A stretch of 64,000 bases of DNA from Peribolospora baueri (lineage: Eukaryota), in NCBI GenBank assembly GCA_029717555.1, contig JAMDHS010000037.1, positions 1-64,000 of the forward strand, given 5' to 3'. The notes beneath the pieces are model-generated. The model was not told where the DNA came from and did no database searches. It was given only the letters and a program-made list of their open reading frames with translations. A program made the translations under genes and the position numbers. Of the stretch, positions 18,952 to 47,525 are shown in pieces (position 1 is the stretch's first letter; each line of letters begins with the position of its first letter).

Positions 18952-19025
18952 TTGCTCTTTCTTCTCGTGCGGCTTCGTTTTTTGTTCACAGCAACTCCAT
19001 GGCCCCCCCCAGTTGACGACAAAAA

Positions 19026-19041
19026 CCCTAGCCCTAACCCT
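19026..19041 (+). repeat. Degenerate telomere-like repeat CCCTAG-CCCTAA-CCCT at the 3' end of the PLE
   Basis: Follows an A5 run about 75 nt downstream of the hammerhead; CCCTAATCCTAA also occurs at 18759-18770. Confidence 0.55.
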
Positions 19042-22300: not shown

Positions 22301-23364
22301 AGGCGCATCAGCGCTGGGCCCGTTGGGCTGAGATGCGTCCGCTTGGGAGGAGGATTGGCAGGACCAGCCGGCTTGCAGGTCAGATGAGATGTTCGACAGT
22401 GGGCGGACATCAGGGTGCAAAGGCGGGCTTGCGGCGCAGCACATGCTCAGCCGCCGGTGATCTGAGCGGTTCAACGTATCGCCCGTCCACTCTGGCTGAA
22501 CGCCGGCTGGTTCGTTGCCAGCAGCGCGGGGAGAACGGCGTGGACTAGACTTATCGCCTTCACGAGTAGTAACAGCTGCCACTGTAGTAGAGTTGCAAGG
22601 GCTCTGCATCATAGCCTCGTCCTCAGGTCCTCTCCATTCCGCCAGCATCCTTAGAGCGGACGCTGCATCTATATCTTCGCCGCGCCCTTCCGCCCGTCCT
22701 AGAGAACTCCTACACCTCCCTGTAGCCATGCCAATAACGGTGCTCGAGGCGGCCCGAAGACTTTCATCTTGCACTTGTTGGGTCTCTCTGCCAGATCCCT
22801 TATCTGTACCAGTGATCGGAACGTTCGGGCTTGACAGGGGCGGACTCGACGGGCTCGCTGCTTGGTGGTACTTCCGCAGTTCGCGGGCAAGCTCTTCGAC
22901 TCTGCGGCGTGAGACGGCCAGTTCTGACTGCAGCCTGCGAACGTCGTAATGCCGTAGGAGCGGCGCGCATGAAGTGGTCAGTGAAACTGGCGCATCACGG
23001 GCAACATGTTACCTCCCTCCTGTACGTTGCCACCCCAGGCCCCTGCCCAGGCTTCCCTCTCTCACCTTCCTAGTTCTGAAGGTTCGCACTCGCTCCATTC
23101 ATCTTCCTCATCCGATTGCTGCTCCCTCTGCTGGTTCTGCTCCTGCTGTTGCTGCTGGCTGTTCTGGCGGACTGACTTGTCTTGCAGCTTGGCATCGTAG
23201 TGACACTCACTCTCCGCACCTGCCTTACTGCAACGTCCGCAACTCGGCCGTGCGCGATCGCAGGCTCGTTTGCCTCGATGGCAAGGTATGCAGGACTTTG
23301 GTATGCGCACCCTCTTCCTCTTCTCTGGGATTCTGGTGGGAGGAGGTTCGGCGTTGCTGGCCAT
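19322..23364 (-). CDS. Zn(II)2Cys6 fungal-specific transcription factor, multi-exon
   Basis: RVRIPKSCIPCHRGKRACDRARPSCGRCSKAGAESECHY; middle homology region (WAIVHLDVLLSGIFGRP, LLLLHRSHL); C-terminus YWAELFQLDLDSLGAAH*. Confidence 0.9.
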
Positions 23365-24246
23365 ATTTGAGCGATGTGATCGATAGATGTGGAGAAGACG
23401 GGGTTGGTGATGGCAGCAGCCAGAATGCGGAGATGTGCGTGGAGCTAAGCTCGCGTGCGGGGGCCTCTCTTCGGCTATAGCGGGGCTTGGCGGAAATTCC
23501 CGTCCCCAGAATTGTCCTCTCCCGCGCCCTGCACGTTATCCGAAATTAATTGTCCTTTCGGATAACTACAGGGGTCACACTAGGAAGGGTTCATAGCACA
23601 AGACTGCCTAGGGAAGAGAGGAGGGCACGAAAAGGAGCCTGATAGAAAGCAGGGCATGGAATGGAGTCCGGCAGGACTCGCAAGAACTTCGCAACACGGA
23701 CAGGATTCTACAATATTCCTTTGCCAACAAGGTCAGCGTGCGGTGTCACGTCACTTTTGCTCAGGGAACGCGCGGCCCGCGCTTAACACCGCAAACGCCA
23801 CGCACCCATGGCGCAAGTACAGTACGGAGCTGACCTCCATGTCGCTAACTCCGCATTGCCCATGAGCTCGGCTTTGCCTGATCTGCTCGGCACCCAAGTA
23901 AGGTAGAGTCAGAGTCAGAGTGTTGTGAAGTCATATATCTCAACACTAAGCCTCGGTCCCCTCGCTCTGGGACGTTACACCTAAATCCGTGAGTTGGAGG
24001 CTAGAACCAAACCAGCAAACGGTGACTTCTCACGATGCGCGCTCTAACCTTCTGACGTGAAGATATACCACAAAGGTTGGCCTGACTGCAATTTTAGATT
24101 CCGCAGGTCAAATGCAATGGACCAGCATGGACCTGCCCTTCTACTTTCGCTCCTAATCGTAGCCTTTCTTACAGCTTACTAGAGAGAATGCTCGATTGAA
24201 AAAGTCATGCGCGCATGTGGCGTGCAGGGACGACCTCAGTGCGCGT

Positions 24247-25920
24247 TTACAACCTGCCGGTCTGCGCTGCTTGAACGGCATGAGCTGCTGCCTCCTTGAA
24301 ATCGTCGTAAGTCGCAATGGGCAGCTTGGAATCTTGCAACTGTCACATCAAGTCCAGAACACGCCCAGTCAGCGGATATGCGTACCGTTCTCATGTTTTC
24401 GGGAGGCGACCGGCGCGTACCAATTTCTTGGCCTCCTCTGCTCCCGTTCCCTTCATCCGCGCCACGATGGGCTGCTTCATGTTGTTCTCGCGCACAGCCT
24501 CAATGATGCCCTGGGCCACAACACTGGCGAGGCATTACGAGGAGTGGTGATAAGCTAATGCTTCCATGCGATATCAGCGCTGCATTGTTGCGACTCACTT
24601 CGTGCGAGTGATTCCGCCGAAAGCTGCGCAGAGATTCGATCAGATAGTTAGACAATTGAGCAACGGCGCAGCGCCGACGCAGCAGGGGCAACGCACTGTT
24701 GATGAAAATCGCCTTCACATCAGGGTCTCGATTGAGCGTTTCCACCGCCAGCCTGGCGTTTGCCTTCGTTGCTCCTCCTCCGCCATCTAAGAAATTGGCG
24801 GACTGGAGTAAAGATACAGGTACCGGAGAATCAGCCCGAAAGAAGAGGGTGAGGAAGAGATGTTAGGGAGCTCACCTTGCCGCCTACTAGGCCTAGGCCG
24901 TCCATTGTTGCCATTGCATTGCCTGCACCATAACCGAAGCAGCCCACATTTCCGCCTGTTTAGACCAATAATTGGTCGAAGATGAGGAAAGCGGGATCAG
25001 AGTCTAGAAGGAAAAGTTCATGGTGCCACTATTGTGCGGGACTGCATAATAGTACTGCGCAACACGCACGAGACGCTTACCGTTGTTCAGCTTGATGTAA
25101 AAAAGGCCACCATCTTCGGCCAGGGCAGCGTTTGCGTTGCGGTTTCGCTTGTCGTAAATCTCCTTCAAGTTGGGCTGGCGATGCAGGGCAAAAGTGTCGA
25201 ACTCAAGGTGTGGGTCCAGCCTATGCGGATAGAAAGTGACATCGGCATCGGCATTGCATGCAGGGCAGACGTGGATAAAATCAAAGACAGCACTCACACC
25301 CTCACTTTTCCATCGTCAATGGAAAGCTTAAAGGTAAACCAAAGTCCCTCTCGCTCGTCAAAAATACGCCAAATGCTCTGAAGCACCTGTGCCGCCTTCC
25401 ACGTGAGGGGCTCAGGAAACGAGAGTCCGGCGAGCTGGGCCGTACGGATGAGGAGATCGAACGCCTGGTCGACGCTGAGCCCATTTCTGAGGTTGATCGG
25501 CAGTTGAATCACCGCCTTTGGCTCCTCCTCTTGGAGACGCATGATCCCCACAGAGCCCGGTCCCAGCTCATCATCCATCAATGAGGGCAATTTGGATGTC
25601 ACGGTACCGAGAAGCGAAGGACCGAAGTGACGGCGGACGCTGTCGTTGGCATCGGTGGGCAGAGCTTGAGGGCGGCGATCGGCATGCAAAAGAATGGAAA
25701 GAGACTTGGCTGTATTATGTGTTGTGCCGCCCTGGTCTGTGTGGTGAGCTGGTACGGGGGCCCCTGTCGATCTCAGAAATTCAATTGCAGAGCCTGCTCG
25801 TAGGTGTACTTGCCTCTTGGACGGCTGCCCTTGTCGCGTCAACGAAACAGCAGAAACTGCTGGTCGGGCGCCTGAGCAGTGCGTTGGCGAGCGAACAAAA
25901 TTAGCGAAGGTGGCGAGCAT
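24247..25920 (-). CDS. Succinyl-CoA ligase beta-subunit-like protein with truncated ATP-grasp domain; putative mitochondrial presequence
   Basis: C-terminal ligase domain GNVGCFGYGAGNAMATMD, ANFLDGGGGAT, DPDVKAIFINTFGGITRTN, PIVARMKGTGAEEAKKL. The N-terminal exon lacks KxQ..GGRGK. Confidence 0.85.
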
Positions 25921-26096
25921 CGGTGTGGATGTATGAAGTCAGACAAGCTATCATGTAGGCTCATGATTGCTTTTGTAAACACTCGCTCCGCAACACCCCG
26001 CTGCCGGTGGCGGTGGAGTTAAGCAACGCGAGCATGGTCACTGATTTGGACGGGGTCTGCGGTCGGCGATAAGTGACGCGCCCCTCGACGCCGGGA

Positions 26097-26105
26097 CGGC
26101 GTTAA
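26097..26105 (+). promoter_or_regulatory. CGGYKTTWA cluster motif in the divergent beta/alpha promoter
   Basis: CGGCGTTAA, with variants CGGCGATAA (26064) and TTAAGCCG (26274). Confidence 0.6.
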
Positions 26106-26313
26106 TAGTAGAGCCGGGCAACTCACCGCATGGCCCTAATCGACTGTTGAGACTCGAGGCTAGCTCCATCAATCTCTTTGCCGATGCCTCGGACACTTGA
26201 TTCAACTTAGAATGCCGAAGTCGCTCACTCATCAAATAGCAGGCGGCCTTTTCGCGGAGTGACAACCAGCAACTTAAGCCGTTCTTTCGACATCATCCTT
26301 CTCACAAGCCAGC

Positions 26314-27876
26314 ATGGTCTTGGGGATCTCAAGCTACGTCCGTGCTGCGACCCACAGTGCCAGACCGCTGGTACGAGATAATTGCCACCAGCAGCTCTTC
26401 CGCGCTTTCAGCACATCGCAACCGGCGCATTCGTATGCAGACACCATCAAGAACGTCGCAGTGGGCCCAGAGTCCAGGGTCATTGTCCAAGGATTCACTG
26501 GTAAAGCGGTGAGCACATCTTCGAGCAGCAGTGCGCGGCATACCCGCCTCCACTATACTGACATTGACTGACACCTTGCTCGGCTCCACTAGAGCACCTT
26601 CCATTCCAAAATCTCGATGGAGATCGGCACCAATATTGTTGGCGGTGTAAGCCCTGCCAAGGGCGGGGCGACCCACCTTGACAGACCGGTCTTCGGGACC
26701 GTTCGCGAGGTCCGTAATCCCCGTGTGCACTTTCGTTCCCCTGACTACGTGCGCGCGGCATCGAATCTCTGAACTATCCTCGCGCACTGTTCACAGGCCG
26801 CCAAGCAGCTGCAGCCGCATGCAACCACTGTCTTTGTACCTCCTCAACTGGCTGCGGATGCCATCATCGAGGCAATCGAAGCCGAGATTCCTCTAATTGT
26901 CAGCGTAGCAGAGGGCATACCTGTCAAAGACCAGATGAGGGCAAGTGTCCGGGCCTCCGCCCCCAGCAGCACGGAGCTCTCAACTTCACTTTTGGCCTTG
27001 TTTTCTTTTGCAGGTCATGTCCGCCCTCCACTCGCAATCAAAGTCTCGCCTGCTGGGCGCCAACTCGCCCGGACTGATGAACCCGTGAGTCCACTCTGGC
27101 TGTGTGATACATAGTGTCACACCTAGCAGAAAAGCTCAACGCGACCTCGTTTTCGTTGACTCAAAAGTGCTGGATGCCGAATGGGCATCTCTCCTCTCAT
27201 TATAGCAAAGCCAGGATGCGTTGGTTCGTGTTGACTCACTGCTACCCGACAAGCACGAGCTTCTTTGCGTGTGCCTCAAACTGTTCACTAACCGTATCAC
27301 ACGTTCGCGTGGATGCTCGTATTTCTCTGAGCGCAGGCATCGCCGCTCGCTCTGGCACCCTTTCTTACGAAGCGGCGTGGGCAACGCGGGGTCTGGGACA
27401 AACCTACATCCTCGGTCTCGGCGGAGACTTTTATCCCGGCACGCGCACGGCCGAAGCGCTGGACTTTTTCATGCAAGATTCGCGGACTGAAGGTGAGCGT
27501 AAAAGACACACGTATCAGATGCAACTAGCCTTCCCCGGTGGCGTCTGGCCATAGTTGACGTGACCCTTCCTCGTGCCCACCAGTCATTGTTCTCGTCGGC
27601 GAGGTAGGCGGCACAATGGAGGAAGAGTGCACCGAGCTACTCCAGAGCAAGTATTGGCAAGATGGTCGGCCCGCTAAGCCCGTGGTTGGCTTCCTCTCGG
27701 GCATGAGCGTCCCGCCCGGCCAAATTTTTGGGCACAGCGGAGCGATCTGGCGCGATGGCATTGCGTCGTCCCACCAGAAAAAGGCGGTGTGGGAGCAGGC
27801 CGGTATTAGAGTCGTTGACACTATTGCGGAGGTAGGGCGCGCAGCGGAGGAAGAACTAGCGAAGCTGAAGGAGTAA
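26314..27876 (+). CDS. Succinyl-CoA ligase alpha-subunit-like protein (divergent paralog), multi-exon
   Basis: [52 protein letters not shown], phospho-His loop [10 protein letters not shown]. One GC-AG intron starts at 26941. Confidence 0.92.
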
Positions 27877-28242
27877 ATAATAGCTGAGAAGAACCCACAC
27901 GACGTCACGCGCCATCTGGAATGTGACAGCATTAGGCTCGGGTTATTCGCAGGGGTCACTTTCACTGGGCAACAAGAGCCACGGGTATACAAACGAGTCT
28001 GTCTAGTCAATGCCGTCACAACTTGATGACTTGATAGAAGGCCTACGCGTATTGTATGTATCGTTCACAAGGAGGTCCTCTCGTGGCCTCGCCGCCGTCA
28101 GTGCGGATTGTAAACACCGCAAAAGCCGTCGAAGAGAGATAGGTGCGGTGGCACAGGCCTGCTCCCGTTAGGCACTTATAGGGCGCTGGGGCCCCAAAAG
28201 CAATAGTTTCGCGGCTACCTTGACCCCGCCTCAACGTTCGAT

Positions 28243-29933
28243 ATGCTTCTTCGCACCTCTCGTATAACATGCGGCGCTTTTCCGGCGACTGTGACACCAG
28301 CTGCACGGCCCTGGCGCAGTGTCCAACACCGCCCGCTAGGCTCACTTGCGAAGCTGAATGAAATAATGGGTACCAGGCAGCCGCCGTTACCACGCCGCTC
28401 GCTTCTTTACGGTGAGTCCGACTGAGCGCGTTTCTAAGTCGTGCTTGCCTAATGCATGTGAATATGACCATCAGTGCCGTCATCATCGGCGAAGCGAATG
28501 GCCTCCGCTGTTAAGCTCGGTACACCCGATACCATTATCTTCGATTTGGAGGACAGCGTCGCGCCGGCCGTGAAGGCTAGCGCGCGACACCAGCTTCAAG
28601 AGGTACTCACTGGTATCGGTCGTTCCCATTCCGACAAGGAGCCGGGAACTAACCAGGCGGCTTACGCCGTCAGGATCAATTCAATGGGCAGCGGACAAGA
28701 GCAAGAAGATCTCCGACTTGTTGTGAGCTGTACAGCAGTCCTCTCAGTCGCAACTTTTCGGTACAAGAACATCATTTTGACCGAGTGTCTTTCATCTCTT
28801 GCCAGCTGGCAAACCCGCTGGTGCGTACTATCATGGTGCCAAAGGTCGATCATCCCGAGCGTCTTGAACACCTTTCCGGCCTACTTCAAGGTATGAAATC
28901 TTCGCCAGCCTCAAGCGGGTGAGTGCTGGTATTCTTCGCAAGATTTTTCCGTGCAAGTCTGACAAAATCTTTGCCTCGTACACGAGACAGCCCCTTGCGC
29001 GTCATCGCTCTCATCGAATCGCCGTTAGGTCTCCTGAACTTGTCCCAGATTGCCTTTTCACCAACACTGCGCACTGCGCAGGCGCAGTTAGACGGTCTGG
29101 CGTATGCGGCCGAAGATCATTGTGCCTCCGCTAGTATCATCCGTGGGCCGGGCGCACTCGAAGTGCTCTTTGCGCGCAGCGCCGTCGTGAACGCCGCTAA
29201 AGCAGCGCGCCTGTCCGCTTTTGATATGGTGTGTTTCCAGTGACTTGATTTTTGCAGTGAGAGCCTTGCTCTTTCTGAACGGTATGTTGTTCTGTGACCT
29301 TGGCGGATCATCGTCGTACCGCCGTAGGTCTGCATTCAGCTTCAGGACCAAGCAGCGCTCGAGTTGGAGGCGAGCCAGGCCAGAAGGCTAGGCTTCGACG
29401 GCAAGGTTTGTAGTTCGCTCGCACGTTGCCGACGCCCACAGTTCAGTTGGTTGCTCACGTTTGCCCCTCGTCGGCCTCGATCGGGCTGCATCTTACTTTC
29501 CGGAGTGCAGCAAGCGGTTCATCCCTCGCAAGTCGACTGCATCAACAGCGCTTTCGTGCCAGGAGCGAACGGTGAGCAACCTTGCATGGGAGTCATATTT
29601 CCGTCAAAACGCGCCATGCTGACTCTGCAATGTGCTCTCCCGAAGAAATCCGTCGCGCAAAATTCATCGTTGAAAGTCTTAAGGGGAAACAAGGTTGTTC
29701 TTCCGGCATTGCCCAGGGCGTCACAGCTCTGACGTACGAACATGCGGATCGAACGGAAACGATCATGGTCGACAAGCCGGTAGTGGAGTGAGTAGTCCCA
29801 ACTTCACGAGGAACTGGGATACAATAGCGTTTTCTGAAGCCCATATGACTTTGCACGTCGCGTGTAAATTCCGTTTCTCGATGGCAGACAGGCGCAGAAG
29901 CTTATCGCAAACGCTGAAACATTCGGACTTTGA
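28243..29933 (+). CDS. CitE/HpcH-HpaI family acyl-CoA lyase (citramalyl-CoA lyase / citrate lyase beta-like)
   Basis: RRSLLY-VP, IIFDLEDSVAP, AVRINS, MVPKV, IALIESPLG, YAAED, AFDMVC, GFDGK-QAVHPSQV, MVDKPV. Confidence 0.9.
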
Positions 29934-30088
29934 GCTGGACTGGCTTCAAGGCAACCTAGGCTGAGCCGGTGATCCGCCGCTTTTACCACCGCCTGCTAAA
30001 CCGGGTGTGTCGTGGGATACAATCATAACTCCTCTTTGAAGTCCCCAGCTCGGGGATATAGTCGGCTGACCCGTAAGGGCCGCATGCA

Positions 30089-30157
30089 TTTTCGGCTTTA
30101 ATTTGTGTTTTCGGCTTTAATCTGTCTTTTCGGCTTTAATTGTCTTTTCGGCTTAAT
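30089..30157. repeat. Tandem array of about 19-bp units each carrying CGGCTT(T)AA
   Basis: TTTTCGGCTTTAAT.. units with cores starting at 30093, 30112, 30131 and 30149. Confidence 0.9.
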
Positions 30158-30401
30158 CCGCCTTGCACTACGCTGCTTACGCCGCACTGTACGTTGTTTA
30201 AGGTTTTGACCTTGTGGTCCAGCACGTACAGTGCGGCCTTGTGCGGCGTTAATGGATAGGCAAAGCGAGCCGTGCAAGAAGGTAGCAAGGGAGTGAGCAA
30301 CGAGGACTTGATATGACGGGGGGACCGGGCCCTGGCCAGTGCACCGAGAAGCTTCCTGTCCATTGTTCGCTGACACTTTTTACTACACTTGCTCCTTTAA
30401 C

Positions 30402-32196
30402 ATGATCGTCCCGTCACGATTTCCACTCTCCGCCTTGAAGCCCTGCTGCACGACACGAGCAATGCTCTGCCGAGCCTATCGGTGCTGGCAGACGGACGTC
30501 AGGCTCATTTCGTCCAGATCGCCTGGCAGAGCAGCATCGCCAGCAGCAACCTCGACATCACAGGTCGGTCTGTCGTCGCCTGTGACCGTTTGGGCGCAAG
30601 AGGCCGCATCACGCGTTCGCAAACAGGACGACGTTGCCGATCTCAACAGAGCTCGGCAGCTCGCCCTTTGTCTACCGCACAGGGCGGCTGTCCCCACTCG
30701 TCCAGGCAAGCAACCTCAGCTGGTAGCCAAAGGTGGAGAGGAAGTCATCGAGATAACAAAAGGGTGTCGGATGCCCAGCGGCGCCTCGTGTGAGCTTTTT
30801 TTTTTTTTTGTTTTGTTTTGGATTATTTTGTTCTTCTCTCTGTTACTATTACTCTATTGTTCTTCATTTTTGTCATTGTTATTCTGGCAAGTTTCAAGTT
30901 GGCGACGGGTTTCCCCCGCTGTCTGAAACTGACGAAGTTTCACAATACTCCACCGCTCTCTGTGTGACATTATAAAGTCACACTTTTCAACCCTCTGCTA
31001 CCAGAGCCTGTGCTAGCGAGCGATGGGACCGAACGTATGTTTGGCCCTCCGGGTGGATACGACCAACGCATGTGGGCTGGCGGGTCCGTGGAGTTCAATT
31101 CCGACAACGTGCTTCGCGTGGGAGACGAAGTGCAATGCGAAGAGAGCGTCGAGAAGGTGACTCGCTCTTGCCTGCTTGGCGGCTCGATAGCACGATTTCG
31201 CCCGTGGGCTTTGGCATTCAGCCTTTTCTTGCAAATCTAACCCCTTTTGCTTCTTCCTTTTGCCCAGGTAGAGCACAAGTCGAGCACAAGCAATGGGAGC
31301 ATGTTGCTAGTCTGGCGCAAGCTCGTGACGAGCAATTCGAATGGTGTCGTATGCACCGAGCGCCGCTGTCACGTTTACCGCAAGCCTCGCCCGCATGCCG
31401 AGATTGACCAGAGTATCAGCCCACGCAAAAAATCTCCTCGTAAGCCCAGACGCTCCCACCCGTACTCTTATCACGAGCGCCATAAATCAGCTTGAAGTTG
31501 CTCATCGCCCTCGCGGCGCTCGTTGACTCCTTCAGCTCAAGAGAGGTCCGCCGACTTCTGCATGCTCTTTCACCCTACACCGGCAACACTTTTCCGCTAC
31601 AGTGCAATTACTTTCAACGCGCACAAAATTCACTTGGACCCCCAATGTGAGAGAAAACGGGCGTCATGTGAATGTTGGCCTTGGGAAAATATACATTTCT
31701 GCACGTATTTGTGACGAAACAAGCGTCGCTGAAACCTTCTCTGCTCTTTTCATCCGAACCCAACACATATGTTGCTCGCAGACTGCCGCGCAGAAGAGGG
31801 CCACCCTGGTGAGTACATGCAACTTGCTCTAACCGCGTGCAGAGCATGACTCGAGATACTCACGGAACAATTTTCCTTCTCTGGCTCTCGCTGCTCCGTT
31901 GGCGCTTCGTAGACTGCCTCGTTCACGGACCACTAACCGCCACCTTGCTCATGTGCCTCATCGACCGTGTGGCCGGCGCTGGGTATCTTCGAAGCTTTAA
32001 GTACCGCGCAAGTTCGCCGCTCGTGGTGGGCCAAAAGGTTACGCTGAACGGGCGCTGGGTGGGAAAAGAGCCGAAAGAAGGCAATCTTCGCCAGGCAGAA
32101 CTGTGGGCTGTTGACGAGCAAGGCCTAACTTGCATGTCTGCAGAAGCGATGATTGAAGACCCTGACAGGCAAATACCTGCGACGTCGTCCGCCTAG
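30402..32196 (+). CDS. Hot-dog fold hydratase, HTD2 / itaconyl-CoA (mesaconyl-C4-CoA) hydratase-like
   Basis: LASDGTE, QRMWAGGSVEF, LFRYSAITFNAHKIHLD, EGHP-DCLVHGPLTATLL, FKYRASSPL; Arg/Ser-rich N-terminus. Confidence 0.88.
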
Positions 32197-32934
32197 TTTC
32201 ACCATGAAGGCTTCAACGGATACTGGACGGCCGTGAGACGCGAACGTTTCACTTCTGTGGGGCCCTTTTTGCGCCAGGACATCGCTACCAACGCCTGTCT
32301 TCGCTTTTTCGAACCCACATGTGTAAACACTCTTCTTCGTGATCTCAACAAGCCAAGGCGCCCACGACTGTAAGAAACGCAGAGACGGATGGCGGTGGAG
32401 TAGCAGCAAGGGGTAATTTACCTTTCTGCGCCCCGCATTCCAGTGTTAAATATTGTGTCCTGGTATTGTGTAACTGGTACATGTCCGTTAGGGAACGCTA
32501 CCTGCATTTGGACCTGTGACTACCTAGAACGTCTTGTTCGTAACGTGCATATTTCGGGTCGCTGAAGTGCAGAGTCGCAAGCGAGAGCGAGCACCGAAAG
32601 ATTGCTGACATGCTAATGTCGTCGCGGAATTCTTCGTCATCGTTGAGCGTGGCAACAAAGGGGCTGCGATCTCAATCTGCACGGCGTGTTTGTTGAACCA
32701 CTCGCAAGAAGGGAACTTTGCAAGAAGCTGTGCCTGTAGCGAGTATGCCGGATTCATACACTCGAATGCGACCTCGTATCTAGTCACGGTCGTGGGTAGG
32801 GAGGGCCCCTGATTCGTGCAGATGAAAGCGTATGGTATTTCTTGGGCACGGTCACGACCACACAGGGAGTTCTTGAAAACTGTGCGCCAATGCCCACCTA
32901 CATCCTTGTCAAGGGGCGCAAGTCGGTTACAGCT

Positions 32935-34937
32935 TTAGCTCACATCGAAGTTAACTGCCTTGATCGTCAGATACTCTTCGATCCCGTATGCACTCCCCTC
33001 TCTTCCGTATCCGCTCTCCTTTACGCCGCCAAATGGAGATTCGCATGCTGAAAGCATGCCCGTGTTCACTCCAACCTGCTCCGCGGCCGGCCGAAGAAAG
33101 AGGGGGGAGGATGGAGGGCAGCGGTTAGTACCACGTGAGAGAAAAACGATTTCAAGACGTAGCGGTAAGGCAGCAGCAAGGCTGTATCGACCTTAGATCT
33201 TAGTTGGCTCACCATCCCAGTCTCGATCCCTTCCGCCATGCGTAACGCGCGGCCAAGGTTAGTTGTGTACACATATCCACCCAAGCCCACGCTTGCGTCG
33301 TTGGCAAGCGCCAGCGCCTCCTCATCGGTGTCAAATGTACGCACTGCAGCGACGGGTCCGAACGTCTCCTCGCGCCAGATCAACATTTGGTCGGTAAGTC
33401 CCGTAACGATCGTGGGGGGAAAAAAGTAGCCACCCTCGAACGGTGTCGTCACGAAAGGTGAGGGGGCCGACCACGCCACCTTCCCGCCCACCTGGAGAGC
33501 CTGCTCAACGTGCGCGCGCGCTTTGTCCACTGCGCGTGCTGAGATGAGTGGGCCGATCACCGAGGTATGGTCGGCGCCGCCGCCAACCTTCATGTTGGCA
33601 AATGCGGCAGCAAGGCGCTGGACGAAAGCGTCATGAATATTGCGCTGCACAAAGATGCGGTTGGCGGCCACACACGTTTGGCCCGCGTTGCGCATTTTGC
33701 TCAAAACGACAGCCGCCACCGCCTTGTCGAGGTCGGCGTCCTCAAAAACAAGCGCGGGTGCGTTTCCACCAAGCTCGAGAGAGAGTTTCTTGAGGGTTTC
33801 TGCGCTCTGCTTGACTAAAAGCTTACCCACACGCGTCGAGCCCGTGAGCGAAATTTTGCGGACGCGAGGGTCGACGCACAGCGCCTCGCCTACTTCGGCA
33901 GTGTTATCCAGAGCAAGGACCACGTTGAGCACGCCTGGCGGGATCCCGCAGCGGAGCGCCAGCTCGCCCAGGGCCAAGGTTGACAGCGGGGTCTCGCCGG
34001 CCGGCTTGAGCACGGTGGTGCAGCCAGCTGCAATTGCAGCGGCCAGTTTACGAGTTGCCATTGCAAGAGGTAGCTGAATTCACGTTTCAAAAGAGGTAAG
34101 AACACGCGGGCTTTTTCTGCCAACTGTGAGCCCTTGCTACGCACGTTCCATGGGCAGAACGCTGCCACTACGCCAATGGGCTGCTTGATCGTCATGATCC
34201 TGCTCGTTGGATTGGCTGCCGGGATGGTGAGACCATACGTGCGCTCTGCCTCGCCGCTGAACCACTCGAGGAACGAGGCAGAATACACAACCTCAGCTTC
34301 CGCTTCCGCACCTGATGCGCTCGTAGGAGACATGCGAGGACAGTAAGTTGAGGCTGTGTGTGAGTAAGGACAAGAGGTTTGGTGTCGAGGAGGAAAAGAG
34401 AAGTCAAATGGGTTGCTCACGAGGCTTTCCATTTTCGGCTACGATTAGCGTCGCAATGTCGGACTTGTGAGCGAGAAGAGCATCGTTGAGGGTGCGGAGC
34501 ATCCGCGCGCGCGATCTGGCAGGAGTCCGTTTGAAGGAGACGAACGCATTGCTTGCCGCATCAATGGCCTTCCGGACATCGGCGGTGTCCATCTCAGGAA
34601 CATCTACCAAGTGCTTGCCGGTGCTGGGGTCTACAATAGAGAGTGGAAAATATGCCAGGCCGGAAACATAATGGGTTATCATCGCGTCTCGGTTTCTGAT
34701 CCCATCGTAGCATCGGTGCAGCTCAGCAAAATCTCGCTTACCCAGTACGGGGAAACGCTTGCGTCCAGTGGCCTCGACCCACTGTCCATTGATAAGTGCC
34801 TTGTCGCGGAAGAGCCCGCCATCCGTGAGCGTAGCGCCAAGCTACAACAAGGGTTAGGGTGAGAGGTGCAGAACCGGCGTCAGAAGCGCAATGCCATTAT
34901 GGTAGATTGGCGAGCCTACTGAACTTACGGTTTCCAT
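32935..34937 (-). CDS. Succinate-semialdehyde dehydrogenase-like aldehyde dehydrogenase (GabD/Uga2 type), multi-exon
   Basis: [74 protein letters not shown]. Confidence 0.93.
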
Positions 34938-35124
34938 GTTGGCGAGAAAAGTACGGATCGTTCAGTACGCAAGCAAGTAAGAGTGCCTGAGCGGGAAGAA
35001 CGCCAGAAGTGTGAGGTAGGTTACGAGCGACTGGTGTCGGAAAGCGGGAACCGTCTCATTAAGCTTCGGGCGTATATAGCGGAGTGGAGGGCCGTTTGCC
35101 CCACACAAGGGTCATGCGGTCGGG

Positions 35125-35308
35125 CGGCGTTAAAGAGGTTATCATAGACGTCGTTGAACATTCACGACGAGTAGCATTCTAGACTAACCCTACCGCGCTA
35201 TTATCCGTCTGCTGATACTCCCTGCTGGACCACTACTCAGCTTAACGCCGCCGCGCACTGGCTCACCTCCCCCGTTGCGGGTCCAAGCGGTTCACGACGT
35301 TAACGCCG
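35125..35308. promoter_or_regulatory. Three CGGCGTTAA motif copies in the divergent SSADH/flavoprotein promoter
   Basis: 35125-35133 (+), 35242-35250 (-), 35300-35308 (-). Confidence 0.7.
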
Positions 35309-35546
35309 CATCTGCCCCAACTTCTGGCTCAGTGAGGCCGGGTCCTGAGCCTCAGGAAGGATCGAGCTGTGCGGGGCCCCGGTTCACTCCATTCCGACGT
35401 CGAGCAAGGCACATTGACAGTACTTAAAGGCTGGCTGCACCTGCGAAAGTTCCATCTCTTCCATCGTCTTCAACTCTACGGAAACCCTTCTTCGGACGCG
35501 AAATTTTATATCTTCCCTTCCATCTTCCTAGCTGATACACGAGACC

Positions 35547-38500
35547 ATGGCAGGTGAGCCATTCACCGTATTCTGTCCCCATGAAGTGCGAGGTAGACAT
35601 ACTTACCACCACCCCTCGCCCCTTTCATTGCAGCTGTCGATTACGATCTTGTGGTTATCGGCTCAGGATTCGCGGGCGTACGTTGGAGTGCTTTTTTTGC
35701 TGTTTTCCCTTGCACGAACAGGATCGCTGATCTATCCCCCGCTTGCTCACCCACATTTGCAGTGTATGACCACACTCAAATTCCTGGAGACGGTACAGGA
35801 GCTGGGGAAGAAGGCCAAGGTTCTGCTTGTCGAAGCAGGAAAGGATGGCGAGCGTTGTGGAGCCTCGTGAGTCAAAAAATAGAGTGCGTAGCACGTTTTG
35901 CCAGTTTCTCACTCGCTTTCTCTATTTGTTCCTCGTACGCCCTATTTATAGGCGTTGGACGGGAGCCTTCGTGAGTCAGGAGACGCTCTAGTGGAGTGCA
36001 GCGACAAGCGTCTGTCTTTGAGCCATGCACCCAGATGATCACACAGCCTAACTGAACGACTTTCTTCCGGCCTCGAATATGCAGCTCCGCCTTGACAACG
36101 ACCTCAACTTTGACAAGGATTGGGTTAAGTACATGCACAAGACGAGCAAAGGCCTTGCAGATCAAGAGTACTGTAAAAAGCTCACTGAAGTTCGTATTCA
36201 ACCTTAAAGCCTACACGCTTGTCACGAATCGTGCTCACATGCTTCACTTTGCTGCGTTCCTAACTTTATTTTGCAGCTCGCCGGCGACACCGCCAGGTAC
36301 ATTGAGGCCAAGGGCGTGAATCTTGTTCGCCATGAGGAAAAGGTCAGCTAGCATCGACCGACTTTTTTTGGGCTGATCCGCTTCTAATCATGCGCTGGCC
36401 TTCTAAACGTACACCCAACGACTTCAAAAAACCACAGCAAGTTGCTCTTGAGTTCGACACGAATGGAGTAGGTCACGACTCGGATGAGGGATTACGTCGA
36501 ACGCGTTCTGATGCTCGTTTCCTTCACTGCCTGTTTTCACTCTGGTTTTAGCATTGTGAGCTTATCGTTCCTATATGGTACATGCGTTGAGACAGGGTGA
36601 AGCCCTTCCATTCACCGTGCTATGCCCTTCTTTTTTCTCGAAACAGTCGTCTTCCCGAAGGGTGGAGGACTTGAGATTGTGACCAAGCTCATGGGTCACA
36701 TTCAGAAATATCCCAACTGTGATGTGTGGTGGGAGACCGCTGCGGAGAAGCTCGTGACGAATGATGAGGGAGCAATCACTGGAGTGGTAGTTCGTGGCAA
36801 GGATGGGAAGCTCAAGAGGGTTACAAGCCACCACGTGATGCTGGCCTGTGGCGGTTTCGAAGGCAACCCCGAAATGCTCACCCAGTACGTCGGGCCAAAC
36901 TCAGGTGAGGAATTTCAAGCAAGCTACGGCGCAGATGACTCTTAAAGCTGCTTCTTTCCACCTTTCCACGCCTAAGTACGCGCTGTTGACTAATACCCGC
37001 CAAATTTTCGCCGATACTTGCAGTGGACCTGCCGCTCATTGCCCCGGGCCTTAAATACGTGAGTTTTGAGCTTGTGCACCCAACCATTGTCCTGGCTCGC
37101 ACAACCATATTTACTAAACAAACAATTTTGTACGCCTGTCGCCTACAGAACCGTGAGTCCTCCTTTGCTGTCTCCCTCTCTCTCCTCTTCTCCACGCTCT
37201 AAAAAAATCCCCGGCGGCTTCATTGTGGCGTAAAAAGCTGACGTACGTTTCCTGCTCAAATCACCCTTTTCCAGAAGGCGCTGGTATTCGAATGGCCAAG
37301 GAGGTCGGCGCTGGGACCTCCGGTTCATACGACGGCATTCACGCCGAACTTGTCGACACTCGATCAAAGAAACCAGATGCAGTCGTATGGGGAAATGGGT
37401 GGGTTATATCTAGTTCACCCTTGCAAGACCCTAGGGTGCGTGTTCACGTCCAGCTCAATTTGGCATTCCTGATCGGGTCGAAACCCCACACCAACCCCGA
37501 TCTTCTAGCTATGGCATATTGGTCGACAAGAACTGCAAGCGCTTCTTTGATGAAGCGCATGCAGAATTGTTTGGATCATTTGAGCTTGCCGCGTACTATA
37601 CTTGGCGCGACGCGCAACAGCAGAGCTGGCTCATATTCGACAAGACCACCTTTGATCACTTCAAGCCTGGTTGGGTAAGTGTGCTCGTGGGCCTACGATC
37701 ATTTCCAGGAACTTTGGTCTACTTAGGAGCGCTCTCGCGTGACAGCTTGCATTCAGCGCATGCACCTTTGTTCTGCAACAGCCGTGACTGCTACGTTTCT
37801 GCATGAAGGGTTAATGCCGATCTAACTGACCACTTCCCTCACTCAGGTCTACGATACGACAGAGGTTCCTCCTGAGGAGGGCAAGACAATCGGCGAACTG
37901 GCTACTAAACTCGGACTTGACCCTCAAAAGCTGGAAGCTACAGTAGCTGAGTTCAACAATGCCTGTGACTCGACGAAACAGCTGAACTTCATGAAGCTCG
38001 ACGGGAAGGGTGAGTAATGGGCGCATAAATCGTGTCCACGTTTCACCACTTCTGACCTCTGCCCTTGTGCCATTTGATGAAGGGACGGAGGGCATTCATC
38101 CGCCCAAGAGCAACTGGGCTGAGCCCCTTTGCAAAGGACCGTTTTATGGCTATCCCCTGACAGCAAACATAACCTTCACTTACGGTGGGCAGCTGCGCTG
38201 TTGGCTCATGCTCGTTGACCTTTATCTCTCACTGAGTCATGTACGACACTGCATACGATCTATTTGTGTGCTGTGCGCTCCCTTTCCTTATAGGCGGCTT
38301 GAAAGCCAACCTGGACACGCAAGTACTCGCCGAAAACGGCTCCGTTATTCAGGGTCTCTACGCAGCTGGCGAGATCCACGGCTTGTGTGAGTAGACGAGC
38401 TAGCAGCTGCCTTCTTTCCTCCGCATGTGGCTTTGATATACGCGCGCGGAACCTGACTTTCCGCCGAACTCTGTTGCAGTCTACCATGAGTACCCTCCCG

Positions 38501-38655
38501 CGACGAGTGGTGAGAACCCGACTCCTCGGATCGCTGTTAGCGACCCTGTACTCACATAGACACATGATTGATTGTTGCGCGTCTGTATCGCAGTCTTGCG
38601 GTCGCTGGCGTTTGGCGGCGTCGCAGGCACTTTCATCGCCAAACAGCTCAAGTGA
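35547..38655 (+). CDS. FAD-dependent oxidoreductase, TcuA/CobZ (tricarballylate dehydrogenase) / fumarate reductase flavoprotein family; very many small exons
   Basis: DLVVIGSGFAG, GASRWTGAFLR, VMLACGGFEGNPEML, NQGAGIRMA, GIHAELVD, YGILVDKNCKRFFDE, PKSNWA, ITFTYGGL, GLYAAGEIHGLFYHEYP. Confidence 0.82.
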
Positions 38656-39749
38656 ACGTACTGGGACCAGTTCTAATCAAACGCAAAGCTGCCGCCTTTT
38701 TTCCTATTCCTCTGTTTCATCGCTACCGACAAATGTTTCTACAAATTTGTTTTGCTCTTTTAAAGTGTTTAGCCTAAGTGAGATATGCTGAATTCTATTC
38801 CGGTCACCGTGTCACATTCTCGTTCGTGAGGCTTGTGGGTGAGAGTGTCTATGTCTGATTGCCCGTGTAGTCCGTTACTGACCTGCAAGAACAGCTCAAG
38901 CTTCGTCATCTTGTTAATGATGACGAGCACGCTGTTCCCGTGGCTATCCCGATCGCCCCAACTCTATCGACATCCGTGACGGGGACTAGCGGGCGATGAA
39001 GTCGTCGGCCATCTGAGCCAGGTCAGCGCTTCTACTGGTTTTACCCGCCAGATCGCTGAGTGGAGAAGAGGACGAGGCTCAATGAGTAACTAGACAGGAT
39101 GCGTGTAGGCTGGTAGCGCGGACTTAGCACGATCCTTCGCATCCACTTCGTCAACGAGAGGGTAAATTGAGTAAGCCGACGTCGTGAGTCCTCGTGAGCT
39201 TGATGTTCTCATCGAACGCTCCGGACCGCACCTGCACTATCGCCTTTACGCCTTGTGGAAATCGGATTGCCGGGATTAGGGTCGTCTTCGCTGACTCGCC
39301 TGTCCACAGTCCTCACTGAGCGTTTTCCTCTGCGGATCTGTGGGAATTCGACCCCTTCGGTGGTATTAGGTGAACGGCCAGAGTAGGGAACATACGCATT
39401 GATAGTCCGAGTGACTGCAGTTGGAAAGGCTCGGTACCAGTCTCCTGATCCCCAGTCTAGTTCGTACTTGCGAGCAGAAGAGCTGCGACGCCCAACAGCG
39501 ATTGGGGGCCTCGAAGCAATGCCGGTAGTTACACCTGCCCCGTTGGGAGCTGCCTGCTTCGTCGGAACCGGCGCGTCAGCAATAGAATTTTTTTCGCCTC
39601 TCCGGGCCTCCCCAAAATCTGTACCCCATTCGACTGATACACGTGTACGCAGATTCCGAAAGTGGCCTCGATTTGCGCTCGCCCGGGCTCCCCGGCACAA
39701 ATAGACCGAATTCTCTAGGACCTCCACACTCCCAATCGACAGCGTAGAG

Positions 39750-39816
39750 GCAATATTCCACTCCACGCTTCCCTCGGCCCACACTTCACTCGGCAGTGCA
39801 ATATTCCACTCCACGC
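39750..39816. repeat. 19-bp direct repeat GCAATATTCCACTCCACGC x2
   Basis: Copies at 39750-39768 and 39798-39816, a partial third near 39824-39834, then a (TGTCG)n microsatellite. Confidence 0.85.
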
Positions 39817-40205
39817 CTCCCCCCGCAGTGCAATACTCAGGAGTGTTGTGTCGTGTCGTGTCGTGTCATCTCGTCGCCATCCTGGTTTGTCAGCTTTCAA
39901 GGCAGACCTCGTCACCGATGCGCCGCTCGCCTCTCTTATAGTACTCTCGGGCTGCACTCATCGCTCAGGTGGATCTGGAGCCTGTATTGCATGTAGCTCG
40001 CACCGGATGACAACCCTTATGCTCAACTCGATATCGTCCCTCGCAGTGCCCAGCACGGGAGCAAATGCAGTTCTTCGGGTAGAGAGGGAGACGAAGGAAC
40101 AGAGTGGGCCGATGCCTCGAGCCAGGCATGTTGGACCGAATCGGACATGGAAAGCGTTGGACACGACCCTCATCCTTACGCCATATTTGAGTTCAGGTCG
40201 CGCGA

Positions 40206-41923
40206 TCAGCGGAGTCCATCGGCAAGCAAACGCAGCCTTTCCAGAACAACGAAGGTGATGATAGTCTGAACAAGTCGATGACGGAGGAGTCCAAGTCAGC
40301 ACCGCCGCGCTACGATAGATAGTTTTCCCCATTTATTACCTACATCAACCTGACTTATGAGCTTACATTTGGCGACAGCCGAATCCATGCGGGTACCCAG
40401 CCGCGGAATAGTCCTCTTGGACCCTGTTCCTTGAGCAAAGCCAAGAGCGCGGCGCGGAAGCTGCTCAGCTGGGTGTTCGATTTCATTGCTCTTGCTTTGA
40501 GAACGCTTTAGTCGAACGGCGTCCACAGTTAACAAAAATATGTGTAAAACAGTTGAAAATTTAGCATAAAACCGCTTGGCGAAGTTGCCAGTGCATGTTT
40601 CCCATGCACATGTAGCAGCGGCTCTTCGCCTCCCATTTCAACGCCTACCGAGCCACTTACTCAAAGGGTGAGGACACGGTTGTCGCGATTGTGCCTGCGC
40701 AGAAAGAAGCACTAAAGTGGAGCTTGATGTCCTCTTCGAGTAGACCACATGATAACAGTAACCCCTTGAAGAAATCATACCTGTCCATGTAAGAGAGCCG
40801 ATAGGTATCGACGGGTCAGAGTGCAACAGCCGAAGAGGCAAAGTCAGCCTTGGTATGCCTACCTTTGTCCACCTCTAAAAAGCGGTACTTACGTTGCAAG
40901 TTGGCTGACATTCATCATTGCCGCCCGCATGGTGTTGGAAACGAGGCCCCGAAAGACGCTGGAAGGTCCCTCCGATTGAATCATTCTGGCCAGAGCATCA
41001 ACGCAGTGCCGATAGTCGTAACGCTGTCCAGGGAGAAACACGCCCGTAAGCCCCGGGCAACGAGTCGAGTGACAGCATGTGCACATAGGTCGGGAAATAA
41101 GGAGAGGTCAAGACGAATCAGCAAGGCGGACGAATAGCAAACCCCAGCAACCCCCAGGGACAGACACCTTTGCTGGGGGCTGATCAATATCTGAAGTCAT
41201 GCGGACCAGTGCAACGTCTGCGGATATTGGTGCAGCGGCGAGTGTATTGTCAGCAGGATAATACATATACTCCAGAGCGCGTTGCATCAAAGTCAAGACG
41301 ACACAGGAGGACGGAGCGCTAAGGCAATGCCTCTGGGTCTTTCTTGTCTTGGGCACCCAATCAAGAGTATGCAGTGCTCACCTGCCGGATTACCGACAAT
41401 CCCACCTGCAACGCCAGCAATCCCGGCACACAGCGCCATTTTCCAGAACGGAGGCGAGTCCCCCGATGTTTGAGAAGACTGGTGTAGTAATTGCTTCAGC
41501 TTTGCGTACGTGCCGAAACTGGAATAATCGCAAAACAGAACGAAAGAGTGAACAATTAGTAGCCTGTAGAAGCGCGATAGCCAGTGGAAGCGCGATAGCC
41601 TGTGGAAGCACGATGCTCCGAGGCTCCGGCCACAGGCGCCCTTCTTATTCTGATTTGGAGTCAAGCAACATTCGACTTTTAGGATACGATTCTTTGCGCT
41701 GTCCTCACCGTGTTACACCGTAAGTCATTTGTCTAAGGAGGCTCGCACTTAAACCTACATATAAGCCCCTCGCGCCGGCAGCTTTTGCCGTGCTGGCGAG
41801 CATTCCAAGAAGCTTGCCTTCTCCATGCCTTGTCTGCATCCTTGTCTTCACCAGGTCGAGCGGGTGGGTACAGCAGGCCGCAATGCAGCCGGAGACACCG
41901 CCAAGCAGGAAGTTGCCTGACAT
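40206..41923 (-). CDS. DIC1: Mitochondrial dicarboxylate carrier (SLC25A10/Dic1-like)
   Basis: THPLDLVKTRMQ, GLSASLLRQMTYGVTR, GNPADVALVRM, RAAMMNVSQLATYD, HFSASFCAG, SPFDVLKAR, WIRLSPNTIITF. Confidence 0.88.
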
Positions 41924-42160
41924 GGTTTGCTGCAAGTCAGTACTGGCAGTATGTTGTCGAAGTTCCAAGGGTGGTTGAGTCTTGATCGCCGCCACAATTT
42001 CCTGGGTGAAGTGGGACGGCTTGGGATCAACGATGGGTGGTATGCGTTGCGACTGGCGATATGACTCTCGCTTTTTAGGAACCACGCCAGTACGACGAAA
42101 ACGACACGACAGCTTTCCTTACCTCTGGCTTTCTCACAGCGGAGAAGCATTGCTGTGCAA

Positions 42161-42339
42161 TAAACGCCGCTTAAGCTGCAGTGCACCATATCATGTGTGA
42201 CTCTGCTGCGTGTTGTGCAAAAGGTAAATCTTAAAGCCGCAGAGGCTGTTACGGCTCTAGTGTTCCCTGCCGTTCGGTTCGGCTTTAACAATTGGCAGAC
42301 GTATCTTCTGTCTTCTGGTCCTGGTCCTAATAAACACCG
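42161..42339. promoter_or_regulatory. Four CGGYKTTWA motif copies upstream of the dicarboxylate carrier
   Basis: TAAACGCCG 42161, TTAAAGCCG 42231, CGGCTTTAA 42280, TAAACACCG 42331. Confidence 0.7.
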
Positions 42340-42460
42340 CGGGCGGCTAGTAGTAAACATGGGATTCCCAGCTTTCCTTAAGAGGGGGGGTAGATGTGTT
42401 TTGTATTCACCAGTGGCGACTCCGTCCTGGGACTGGACGGGAACGCCTGGGCCACGCATC

Positions 42461-43326
42461 TCAGCTCCTACCAGACTTTTGCGATTCGGACGTGGCTTGA
42501 GAACTTGTCGTGGCCAGGCGCTCGTGCTGGGTAGCTTTTTCGACGGGCTATGTGAAAGTAACAGCACGCATCCTGGTCAGTTTTCCATCTCTACCATCCT
42601 CGGAATTCTCCTGCAACGAGAGCGCCATCGCTATCTCACTTGTTCCCATGCGTTGCGGTTGACGGTGAAGATTTCAGCAGCCGGTCTGGGATAGCTGCCA
42701 GCTTCCGTGAGAGCGAACAGGCCGAGTTTTATCACTGTCTTTCCTGGCCGGCTAGGGCCAACAGTGTGAATAGGGGAGCCACACCCGCCGCAGAAGAAAC
42801 GGCTGGTCGTATTACCGCTATGAGTGTCGCTGTCACGGTCTGTAGGGACATTGAGCAAAATACTCCCTTAAGCTTATTGCCGGACCGTAAGTACCATTGA
42901 GGGGAGCAATGGACGCCAGGAGAGCAGGCGCAAGGAATATTACAGCAAGGTAGTAAGGACAATCAATGGGAAAACTCTTACATTCGCGTGGACTGCCCTT
43001 GATCTCGAGATCCTGCAACATCACCACTGTCACTAAGGAGAAGGCTACGAGGCCAGTGCAGAATCCAGGTGGTAGAGTCATTTGGTTAGAAGTGAAATTT
43101 TAGGTCATCTGCCAGCAAGTTCGGCGCTGTATTGTACCTGATCCAGCCGTAGTTTGGCAGTTTCTGCAGTGTAAGGACAGAAGCGCGTGAGCGATCAGGT
43201 GTGCCTCAATGATGAAAAAGGACGCATCGCTCACTTGCAGTGACACACCAAAGGCGTAAGTGGCAAGCTGCCATCCGAGACCGTAACCTGGATGTCACCG
43301 CATAAGCACCTTCCAATGAGAGGCAT
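42461..43326 (-). CDS. GFA / Mss4-like (CENP-V, DUF636) zinc-binding protein, multi-exon
   Basis: GRCLCGDI, VCHC-x-NCQ, RFFCGGCGSPI, KLGLF, EIFTVNRNAW. Confidence 0.85.
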
Positions 43327-44792
43327 GATAGGGTTGAGCCTGGACAAGAACGCCGGACTGGTCGACAGAGGGAGCGGCGCAAGGGATGAGAAGGCAAGCG
43401 CTGAGATCAGGTTTGCTTTGTGCGGGGCAACGGTGGGATGCGCATCGGAGCGAAGCTTCGGCGTATTTATCATAGCTGCCGTACTGCGGCGAGACTCTGT
43501 GACGTAGAGGCACTTCCAAAAACGGTCCAACGTCCTAATCGCCGCCACCTTCAACGATGCCTGCGCAAGCAGCCTAGAGGCTTCGAAGGCACTTACAATT
43601 TCACTCTGGCTGAGAAAAGAAAATGAAAGGAGAAAAACCTGCTTTTCCTAACTAACAGCTCAATGACGGGTCGAGGTTTTCGAGGCGCCGGCCGCCAACG
43701 GTCGCGTTAGGGGCATCTTTTCCTGAAATGGGCCTACATCGTCCTTTGCGATGGCGCTGCTGTGATCGAAGATTTGGCGAGGCGCTCATACCCTGGACTC
43801 CTGGTTTGAGCTTTGGCGATTTCAACACTGTGAGAGCCCGAGGGCCCGACTCTTAAGCCGTCATCCCTGCTTCCATTTCCATATCCTGCTCTTTCTCTTT
43901 TCGACGACAAATCTCTGGTTCCCTCTGGCAGAAAAGACGCACCTTGTTCCCCTGCGGCGGATGCGCGCCTAACCAGGTTGACCCCAAGCCGAATGCGAAC
44001 CAACCACCGGCCTTTGCGCTCGTGACGCACTGTTGTTACGAGTTTGGCGCTCACTCGCGTTGTGACGCTCTGTGGACGAGGCTGAGATGAACGCAAGGTC
44101 GGTTCTTGCGGTATTACCAGCTGAGACGACCTGATAGGCGCGACGGCGTTTACTCGCGCGGCTTTTACTCGCGCGGCTTTGGGAACCCTATCGCCGATGG
44201 AGCGTCACGTGCGGAACAGCAGCTATCCCTGCTCTCCCAATCTCCTCCCCGCAAAAAGCCCACACCTGCGATTGGCCGTCGAGATGGGAGACAAGCCTAT
44301 GGCCGCAGATGAGGAATAGAGTGAGACAGAGGTAGACATGTGTCTCAGAGGAAGGCTCTTTTTTGACTTTGAGCCCTTCCTATCTTCTATACAGGGAACC
44401 ACTGGTCTCTCAACAGGAGCACATGTTTTAATTTTTTTTTTTTTTTCCTTCTCCTTCTCCTTCCCCATCGCGCGCGTATGGTTTGTCTATGAGAAAAGGG
44501 GACCATTTTCACGCATCATGGTGCAAGATGGGCAAGGCGACACAAGGTTAACCGTCCCGGAGGAAAGGACGAATTGAGTGACGTTGGCCAAGGCGCGGAC
44601 GTGAAGGGAAAGTGTGGAAAAGATAGTGATGCATGGATAGAGAGACAGGACACAAATACATATTGACGGACAATAACAGTGCAATGGGGGTGAACGAGCG
44701 ACGACAGAAGCAAAGCTGCAAAGACCCAGACCGAGAAACAAACCGAGGAACAAACCGGAACAAAACAAGCTAAAGAAAGAAAACAAAGACAG

Positions 44793-47364: not shown

Positions 47365-47395
<31 letters not shown>

Positions 47396-47525
47396 CGGAT
47401 CGTCCAGCGCGGACACGGTCAGCGTCAAGGCGGTGTTCGTCGGACGTGGAGGGCTTCTTGAAGATGGCGGCCAAGCTCGAGCCGACCGAGCGGCCGATGG
47501 CCGAAGGAGGGTGGGGGCAGTTCAT
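44793..47525 (-). CDS. Arrestin-like protein with disordered N-terminus and C-terminal PY motif
   Basis: Two long exons; PGTYVLPLS..PPS arrestin-N-like segment, beta-rich C-terminal domain, terminal PPPAY. Confidence 0.55.

Follow-up and report, generated by a model that had tools for sequence, protein, structure and literature searches.

The promoter word CGGYKTTWA marks an organic-acid gene cluster of Peribolospora baueri and is a putative site of its Zn2Cys6 factor

The word CGGYKTTWA is a promoter-restricted, cluster-wide element whose density is unique in the genome of Peribolospora baueri, and it marks an organic-acid gene cluster on contig JAMDHS010000037.1 (assembly GCA_029717555.1), of which positions 1 to 64,000 were analysed (hereafter the window). 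In the extended form DCGGYKTTWA it is probably the upstream activating sequence of the Zn2Cys6 transcription factor (TF) encoded in the same cluster, a putative binding which is proposed here from sequence. Cluster-specific Zn2Cys6 sites are a textbook principle, and the marked pathway is more interesting than the motif. Sites shared by the targets of a cluster regulator are, in the part of PMC6781578 that describes it, the basis of CASSIS; the window has in common with such systems a CGG-anchored word in the promoters of a cluster that holds its own regulator (PMC6781578). A literature search, mostly of the main texts of freely readable papers, returned no description of the word together with this factor, this cluster or the shortened succinyl-CoA synthetase (SCS) beta family which the cluster includes.

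Distribution of the word in the window and the genome

On the two strands of the window the word occurs 16 times, compared with a mean of 2.0 and a maximum of 5 in 100 dinucleotide shuffles, and all 16 occurrences lie inside seven upstream regions, which together comprise 4,455 bp and serve nine cluster genes. An earlier note, made by eye, had given these positions, all of them as upstream, along with three CGGCTTAA variants at 26274, 30149 and 43853; each was recovered, the 64 kb hold no further match to the word, and a fourth variant lies at 52650, beyond the cluster. The note's claim that every gene of the cluster is marked holds for eight genes, whose sites stand 123-418 bp from the ATGs as called here; the ninth, which encodes a GFA-family protein, is marginal at 817 and 832 bp. 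The word is absent from the left 19.3 kb, which has an equal GC content (~54%) and a sugar-catabolic cluster of its own, from everything right of 44.4 kb, and from the rest of the cluster outside the upstream regions, including 3,525 bp of downstream and convergent intergenic DNA.

The word also emerged from a de novo search, in which every 9-mer with three two-fold degenerate positions was scored over the seven regions with tandem copies collapsed. Since two tandem arrays (30089-30154, period 19; 44139-44180, period 15) account for five of the 16 sites, the number of independent sites is 13. CGGYKTTWA ranked first in this exhaustive enumeration (13 sites, 7/7 regions, score 17.1); the best score of any pattern over 572 shuffled sets was 12.78, and only 5 of these sets contained any all-region pattern. 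In a leave-one-out procedure, the top motif derived from six regions matched the held-out region in five of seven cases, with 0.02-0.06 expected for each. For the left sugar cluster, the best shared 9-mer scored 8.7, which is within the shuffle range. An origin by chance and tandem slippage in a low-GC island, with a motif fitted post hoc, could appeal to the tandem copies and to the definition of the motif on these very regions, but is rejected by the exhaustive search with matched shuffles, by the leave-one-out result and by the neighbour of equal GC with its 0 sites; we regard it as highly improbable and already largely refuted.

Over the whole genome, the frequency of the word predicts 0.45 sites for the span of the cluster. 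When 342 genomic sites were mapped, leaving out 155 of 497 in which C precedes CGG or which read CGGTTTTWA, the densest 21-kb stretch was the cluster with its 16 sites, and no stretch elsewhere held more than 4. With 497 matches in the genome, but 16 as against at most 4 per 21 kb, the signal is local clustering and not the word by itself; for the same reason a single site is insufficient to assign membership, and the statement in the note that the motif independently defines the cluster applies to the clustering of sites only. Compared with this genomic background and with unrelated promoters, the word is densest in the cluster and absent from the controls, namely the upstream regions of the canonical SCS genes, the 721 bp between the genes of a paralogous SCS-like pair on contig C51, and the loci of three family-III CoA-transferases (PF02515) and of other lyase and hydratase paralogues, which may not span whole promoters. 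Two overlapping opposite-strand sites, together forming CGG-N8-CCG, were observed inside a long open frame that matches no Pfam family on contig C66 (24828-24841; L013:4329-4342).

From left to right, the cluster begins with the Zn2Cys6 factor (19322..23364, minus strand, 3' end approximate), whose DNA-binding domain (DBD) lies in the first exon at ~23190-23320 and is followed by a fungal TF middle region, and whose site CGGTGTTAA (23783..23791, minus) stands 418 bp upstream. An SCS beta-like subunit with a shortened ATP-grasp domain (beta'; 24247..25920, minus, 3' end approximate) and an SCS alpha-like subunit (alpha'; 26314..27876, plus, identified by TIGR01019 matches and alignment with homologues) share a divergent promoter with a CGGCGTTAA site (26097..26105, plus; 176 and 208 bp from the ATGs) and a CGGCTTAA variant (26274-26281, minus). 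The site CGGTGTTTA (28111..28119, minus), which is preceded by CGGCTTTTG, lies 123 bp upstream of a CitE/CLYBL-like C-C lyase resembling citramalyl-CoA lyase (28243..29791, plus), and four plus-strand sites (30089..30252) precede a MaoC/HTD2-type, itaconyl-CoA-hydratase-like hydratase (30402..32196, plus); those at 30093, 30112 and 30131 form the 19-bp array, which closes in the CGGCTTAA variant at 30149, and the fourth is at 30244. Three CGGCGTTAA sites (35125..35308; 35125 plus, 35242 and 35300 minus) occupy the divergent promoter of a succinate-semialdehyde-dehydrogenase (SSADH)-like aldehyde dehydrogenase (ALDH; 32935..34937, minus) and an FAD_binding_2 flavoprotein of the TcuA-like, that is tricarballylate dehydrogenase-like, subfamily (35547..38655, plus). 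A mitochondrial carrier (40690..41923, minus, ATG and 3' end approximate) has four upstream sites (42161..42339; 42161, 42231 and 42331 minus, 42280 plus), and the GFA-family gene, the weakest member of the cluster (42560..43326, minus, 3' end approximate; Pfam GFA E 7e-7), has two plus-strand sites at 44144 and 44159 in the 15-bp array (44139..44180) as well as a CGGCTTAA variant (43853-43860, minus).

A close relative is collinear with positions 25512-38863 (13.4 kb) and differs by 222 substitutions (1.7%), but 283 differences are not displayed in the comparison; only two of the 14 covered sites are readable, both of them unchanged where 0.34 changes would be expected, and close to the TF site 55 gap letters have no assigned position. 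A metagenome scan returned 12 loci at 30-45% identity, with no close fungal orthologue among them.

Candidate readers of the site

Zinc-cluster proteins recognise CGG triplets both in repeated form and as monomers, and Hap1 of Saccharomyces binds CGG-N6-CGG, as stated in sections of PMC10954478. The cluster factor is recognised by Pfam Zn_clus (E 5.5e-7), and its nearest solved DBD is that of Hap1 (E 7.6e-8, vs 0.15 for Gal4), a match which covers only 43 residues and is no test of orthology. A second CGG at six bases occurs at one window site (28111); the other 15 of 16 have none there. Entries in PMC12941744 list AmyR with CGG-X8-CGG or CGGAAATTTAA, InuR with CGG-X8-CGG and AlcR with the half-site TGCGG; PrnA and XlnR are further named systems of this kind. 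In contrast to AlcR/AmyR/InuR-type sites, those of the window are single half-sites in a basidiomycete host, with no fixed spacing or orientation found between them and with a second CGG eight bases downstream in 0/16. The base 5' of CGG is never C across the 16 sites, and CGGTTTTWA, though permitted by the consensus, is found 0 times.

The middle region of the factor appears intact, as its homologue P0153 (PF04082) aligns over 19898-22072; this was the single hit in a search for a full-length named orthologue, and it carries no name. In the proposed mechanism, the zinc cluster would read CGG and a flanking arm or linker the AT-rich tail, with the factor bound either as a monomer or, over a degenerate second half, as a dimer. 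An organic-acid ligand would activate the factor and thus induce all cluster genes, including that of the factor itself, for which autoregulation via the site 418 bp upstream is possible, judging by the position of that site. At 23537-23566, ~170 bp upstream of the TF gene, two perfectly matched inverted 10-bp arms lie 10 bp apart, with CGGATAA facing outward; this repeat could be the site of a second regulator.

A broader regulator encoded elsewhere might instead bind the word to induce acid or fatty-acid catabolism, in which case the in-cluster factor would be a target and not the binder. Half-sites of the Hap1, Oaf1 and Stb5 type read CGG-N3-TNA or CGGNSTTA, with TA following CGG-N3 in the case of Hap1, and the consensus is compatible with CGG-N3-T-W-A; the 497 genomic copies would also suit such a regulator. 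Site pairs within 1 kb outside the cluster are, however, at chance level among the 342 mapped sites (6 vs 4.7 expected), and the genes beside seven outside pairs (frames of at least 120 aa in seven of eight fetched loci, L020 excluded) are unrelated, comprising helicases, a kinase, a cullin, CPSF, WD40, glycosidase and retroelement genes. The looser CGG-N3-TWA is, furthermore, far less specific, with 21 of 51 matches in the upstream regions, and we consider a broad external regulator quite improbable.

A second cluster bears more directly on the identity of the reader. A lyase-family search of the genome uncovered C646:106300-120700 (L048-L050), which encodes a sialate/carboxylate-type MFS transporter, an HpaI-type aldolase, an ALDH, a short-chain dehydrogenase, a glyoxylate-reductase-like enzyme, a TauD/TfdA dioxygenase and a Zn2Cys6 factor. 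This factor is the best match in the genome to the window DBD (E 2.7e-8, the next being 3.5e-4), and the two share C.PCHR.KR.CDR and a near-identical recognition segment. The half-site CGGCGTTAA stands before the C646 transporter gene and in the interval between the aldolase and the ALDH, where it is part of CGG-N8-CGG. C646 carries GCGGCGTTAAGACGG twice and, upstream of the C646 factor, CGGAATTAAGGCGG; these are three of the 11 genome matches of that longer sequence pattern, and all three conform to the CGG-N8-CGG of AmyR and InuR.

Sister factors in clusters with the same half-site favour the in-cluster factor as the reader, but they also turn the C646 factor into a competing reader, or a joint one. 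In the latter case, the window sites would be read mainly by the C646 paralogue or by a heterodimer, and the two clusters would form one regulon, to which C646 would contribute uptake and upstream oxidation. Besides the shared half-site and recognition segment, this is suggested by the SSADH-like ALDHs of both clusters (53% identity over 198 aa) and by the lack of a plasma-membrane transporter in the window cluster in a Pfam scan. Against it stand the C646 sites themselves, which are full CGG-N8-CGG repeats with no counterpart at the 16 window sites, the distance between the factors outside the DBD (23% between P0153 and the C646 TF), and a window TF which looks intact and carries its own upstream site. 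Control mainly from C646 is unlikely in our view. The uptake transporter that the earlier note had expected among further members of the regulon has one candidate, the carboxylate-type MFS transporter of C646. The note's assignment of the word to the in-cluster TF is supported in part: the word is non-random, promoter-restricted and cluster-specific, its form is compatible with a Zn2Cys6 site, and the in-cluster factor is the most probable of the candidate binders; the C646 paralogue could bind the same half-site.

A number of observations weigh against binding by the in-cluster factor and against a link with C646. The seven upstream regions were delimited with the site positions known, that of GFA most generously, and genome-wide the word is not over-represented (497 in 22.7 Mb, vs 679 for the reversed control). 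The two leave-one-out misses are the TF and lyase regions, both of which have CGGTG-variant sites, and the candidate for autoregulation is one site only, namely the missed minority variant of the TF. At C646 the strict word is found in only two of five upstream regions, with a post hoc P of ~0.003 for the two sites when 3.8 kb of upstream sequence is counted and 0.04 over 14 kb. The genome search for paralogues of the window DBD scored six candidates only, and the 3.1-kb locus of a third such domain, with CHRAKR (L057), is free of sites.

The predicted pair of TF and site provides a ready reporter for finding the inducer of the cluster, and hence the substrate of an undescribed basidiomycete pathway, and could be used to sense C5 dicarboxylates in a eukaryotic host. 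The paralogous factors, with half-sites on the one hand and CGG-N8-CGG on the other, represent a small natural experiment on the divergence of Zn2Cys6 specificity.

The predicted pathway of the marked genes

In its gene content, the cluster resembles itaconate/methylsuccinate catabolism, and a branched C5 dicarboxylate is the likeliest substrate; a less likely alternative is a trans-aconitate/tricarballylate route by way of citryl-CoA. The lyase belongs to Pfam HpcH_HpaI and has CLYBL (5VXC, E 2.6e-5) as its best solved match, with citE and RipC_Ccl below cut-off in single-exon searches. The hydratase matches Pfam FAS1_DH_region (E 8e-4) and bacterial MaoC-family proteins, and its best solved match is itaconyl-CoA hydratase (8KHG, E 0.005, single exon). 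The genome holds further paralogues of both enzymes. The ALDH is assigned by Aldedh (E 2e-100), with TIGR01780 as best family. The carrier matches Pfam Mito_carr, with UCP2 as the nearest solved chain (E 3.6e-15), and its motifs suggest that it is dicarboxylate-carrier-like.

These enzymes suggest a route in which the cytosolic ALDH and the TcuA-like flavoprotein would yield an unsaturated branched C5 dicarboxylate of the itaconate/mesaconate type, the carrier would import it into mitochondria and alpha'/beta' would form its CoA ester. The hydratase would then give citramalyl-CoA, from which the lyase would release pyruvate and acetyl-CoA; mitochondrial and cytosolic locations were judged by eye from N-termini. 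Passages of PMC12290011 define itaconate degradation by itaconyl-CoA hydratase and citramalyl-CoA lyase and state that SCS can replace the CoA transferase. The system resembles Aspergillus IctA/IchA/CclA in its putative Ich-like hydratase and Ccl/CLYBL-like lyase, probably mitochondrial. The itaconate-degradation genes of A. niger are not clustered according to the relevant part of PMC6320622, which also reports the induction of a fungal TF whose locus tag adjoins ictA. The window genes, in contrast, are clustered and co-marked, add an SCS paralogue, an ALDH, a TcuA-like flavoprotein and a carrier, and include no family-III CoA transferase, PF02515 genes being found on three other contigs. In the Pseudomonas and Cupriavidus itaconate/methylsuccinate clusters, the SCS is of the usual ATP-dependent kind, and an acyl-CoA dehydrogenase, for which the window cluster has no gene, oxidises methylsuccinate in the form of its CoA ester.

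Bacterial neighbourhoods of the flavoprotein indicate acid catabolism and no single substrate: an ALDH is nearby in 17 of 41 close and 6 of 39 distant loci, and family-III CoA transferases in 5 of the 12 loci scanned for them, one with a RipB/Ich-type hydratase. The window hydratase and lyase exons had a nearby match in 0/80 of the bacterial flavoprotein loci. Given this absence and the CoA transferases in 5/12, the substrate of the cluster is only inferred, and the C5 dicarboxylate is further weakened by the single-exon matches behind it, that of the hydratase in particular. The close relatives of the flavoprotein are mostly bacterial, with the addition of Saitoella, which hints at transfer. 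The window comes from an intron-rich basidiomycete, and the nearest named homologues of the SCS-like genes are from Ustilaginomycotina; in Violaceomyces the homologues of alpha' and beta' have consecutive accessions (PWN51802/PWN51803), which indicates that the gene pair is old.

The succinyl-CoA synthetase paralogue and the surroundings of the cluster

In SCS, the nucleotide site belongs to the N-terminal domain of beta, ATP is covered by the closing lid, and the histidine moves across to Glu197 at this site, as described in parts of PMC2440562, PMC11494057 and PMC10342173, respectively. Compared with the ADP/GDP-forming enzyme, alpha' keeps its catalytic motifs, with Glu208 (GEVGG) and His246 (GHSGA), whereas the ATP-grasp domain of beta' is incomplete. 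Beta' belongs to a conserved family, in which 41-44 residues stand at the lid position where SucC has 111 (~70 residues short), the GGRG motif is not in place and EINP (Glu197, Asn199) is found in 0/18; the C-terminal domain of beta' retains GAG and FGG. The canonical beta of the same genome retains the lid, GGRG and EINP features. These comparisons were made by HMMER, hhalign and fold comparison, since MAFFT did not align the N-terminus of beta' reliably to SucC. A model of the homologue P0132 (pLDDT 76.5) matched SucC with Z 19.9 over 285 aligned residues, at an rmsd of 10.6 that reflects domain placement, and only 132-145 residues aligned with isolated ATP-grasp structures of 204-239 residues. 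The ESM Atlas yielded canonical beta families only and no beta' family.

A divergent beta'/alpha' paralogue pair at C51:6100-10000 (L036), outside any such cluster, also has a shortened ATP-grasp domain and brings the SCS-like sets of the genome to three; its beta' still has an acidic residue in place of Glu197. This pair is flanked by exopolyphosphatase-like and malic-enzyme-like genes (labelled by eye). A 97% identical partial copy of the window beta' (24201-25541), with ~80 bp missing, lies near a contig end on C284 (~198-199.3 kb; L039:5043-6302) and looks like a pseudogene fragment.

Without lid and Glu197, His246 would be charged only from succinyl-CoA and phosphate, and the phosphohistidine would pass its phosphate to itaconate or mesaconate, so that CoA would move by an acyl-phosphate/phosphohistidine route. 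Alternatively, alpha' might pair with the canonical beta instead of beta'. In its most extended form, the proposal is that a complete fungal regulon, induced by a ligand and devoted to branched C5 dicarboxylates, is marked by the word, that an SCS has been turned into a nucleotide-free CoA transferase, and that two paralogous factors with one half-site couple the cluster to C646, which would supply uptake; as a whole, we put this forward tentatively, as a doubtful but possible reading. If true, it would represent CoA transfer unlike that of CoA-transferase families I-III. From the genome, the chief reason to take the lid-less SCS paralogue for a partner of the hydratase and the lyase, and not for a copy in decay, is the shared site.

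In the surroundings of the marked genes, no gene was called at 38700-40600, where a high-copy short repeat, marked by high depth, lies at ~39750-39870. The sugar-catabolic cluster to the left (820-17620) comprises two Gfo/Idh/MocA oxidoreductases, a phosphoglycerate-mutase-like gene, a second Zn2Cys6-type factor (recognised by eye), a sugar porter and an anhydrosugar kinase of the AnmK/levoglucosan type. Both clusters of the window are located in a block of ~54% GC (1-45000), which adjoins housekeeping-type DNA of 60-67% GC (45000-60000). Repeats at 18127-19035 and 222-337 are 92% and 86% identical, respectively, to contig C12, and the longer one divides the two clusters.

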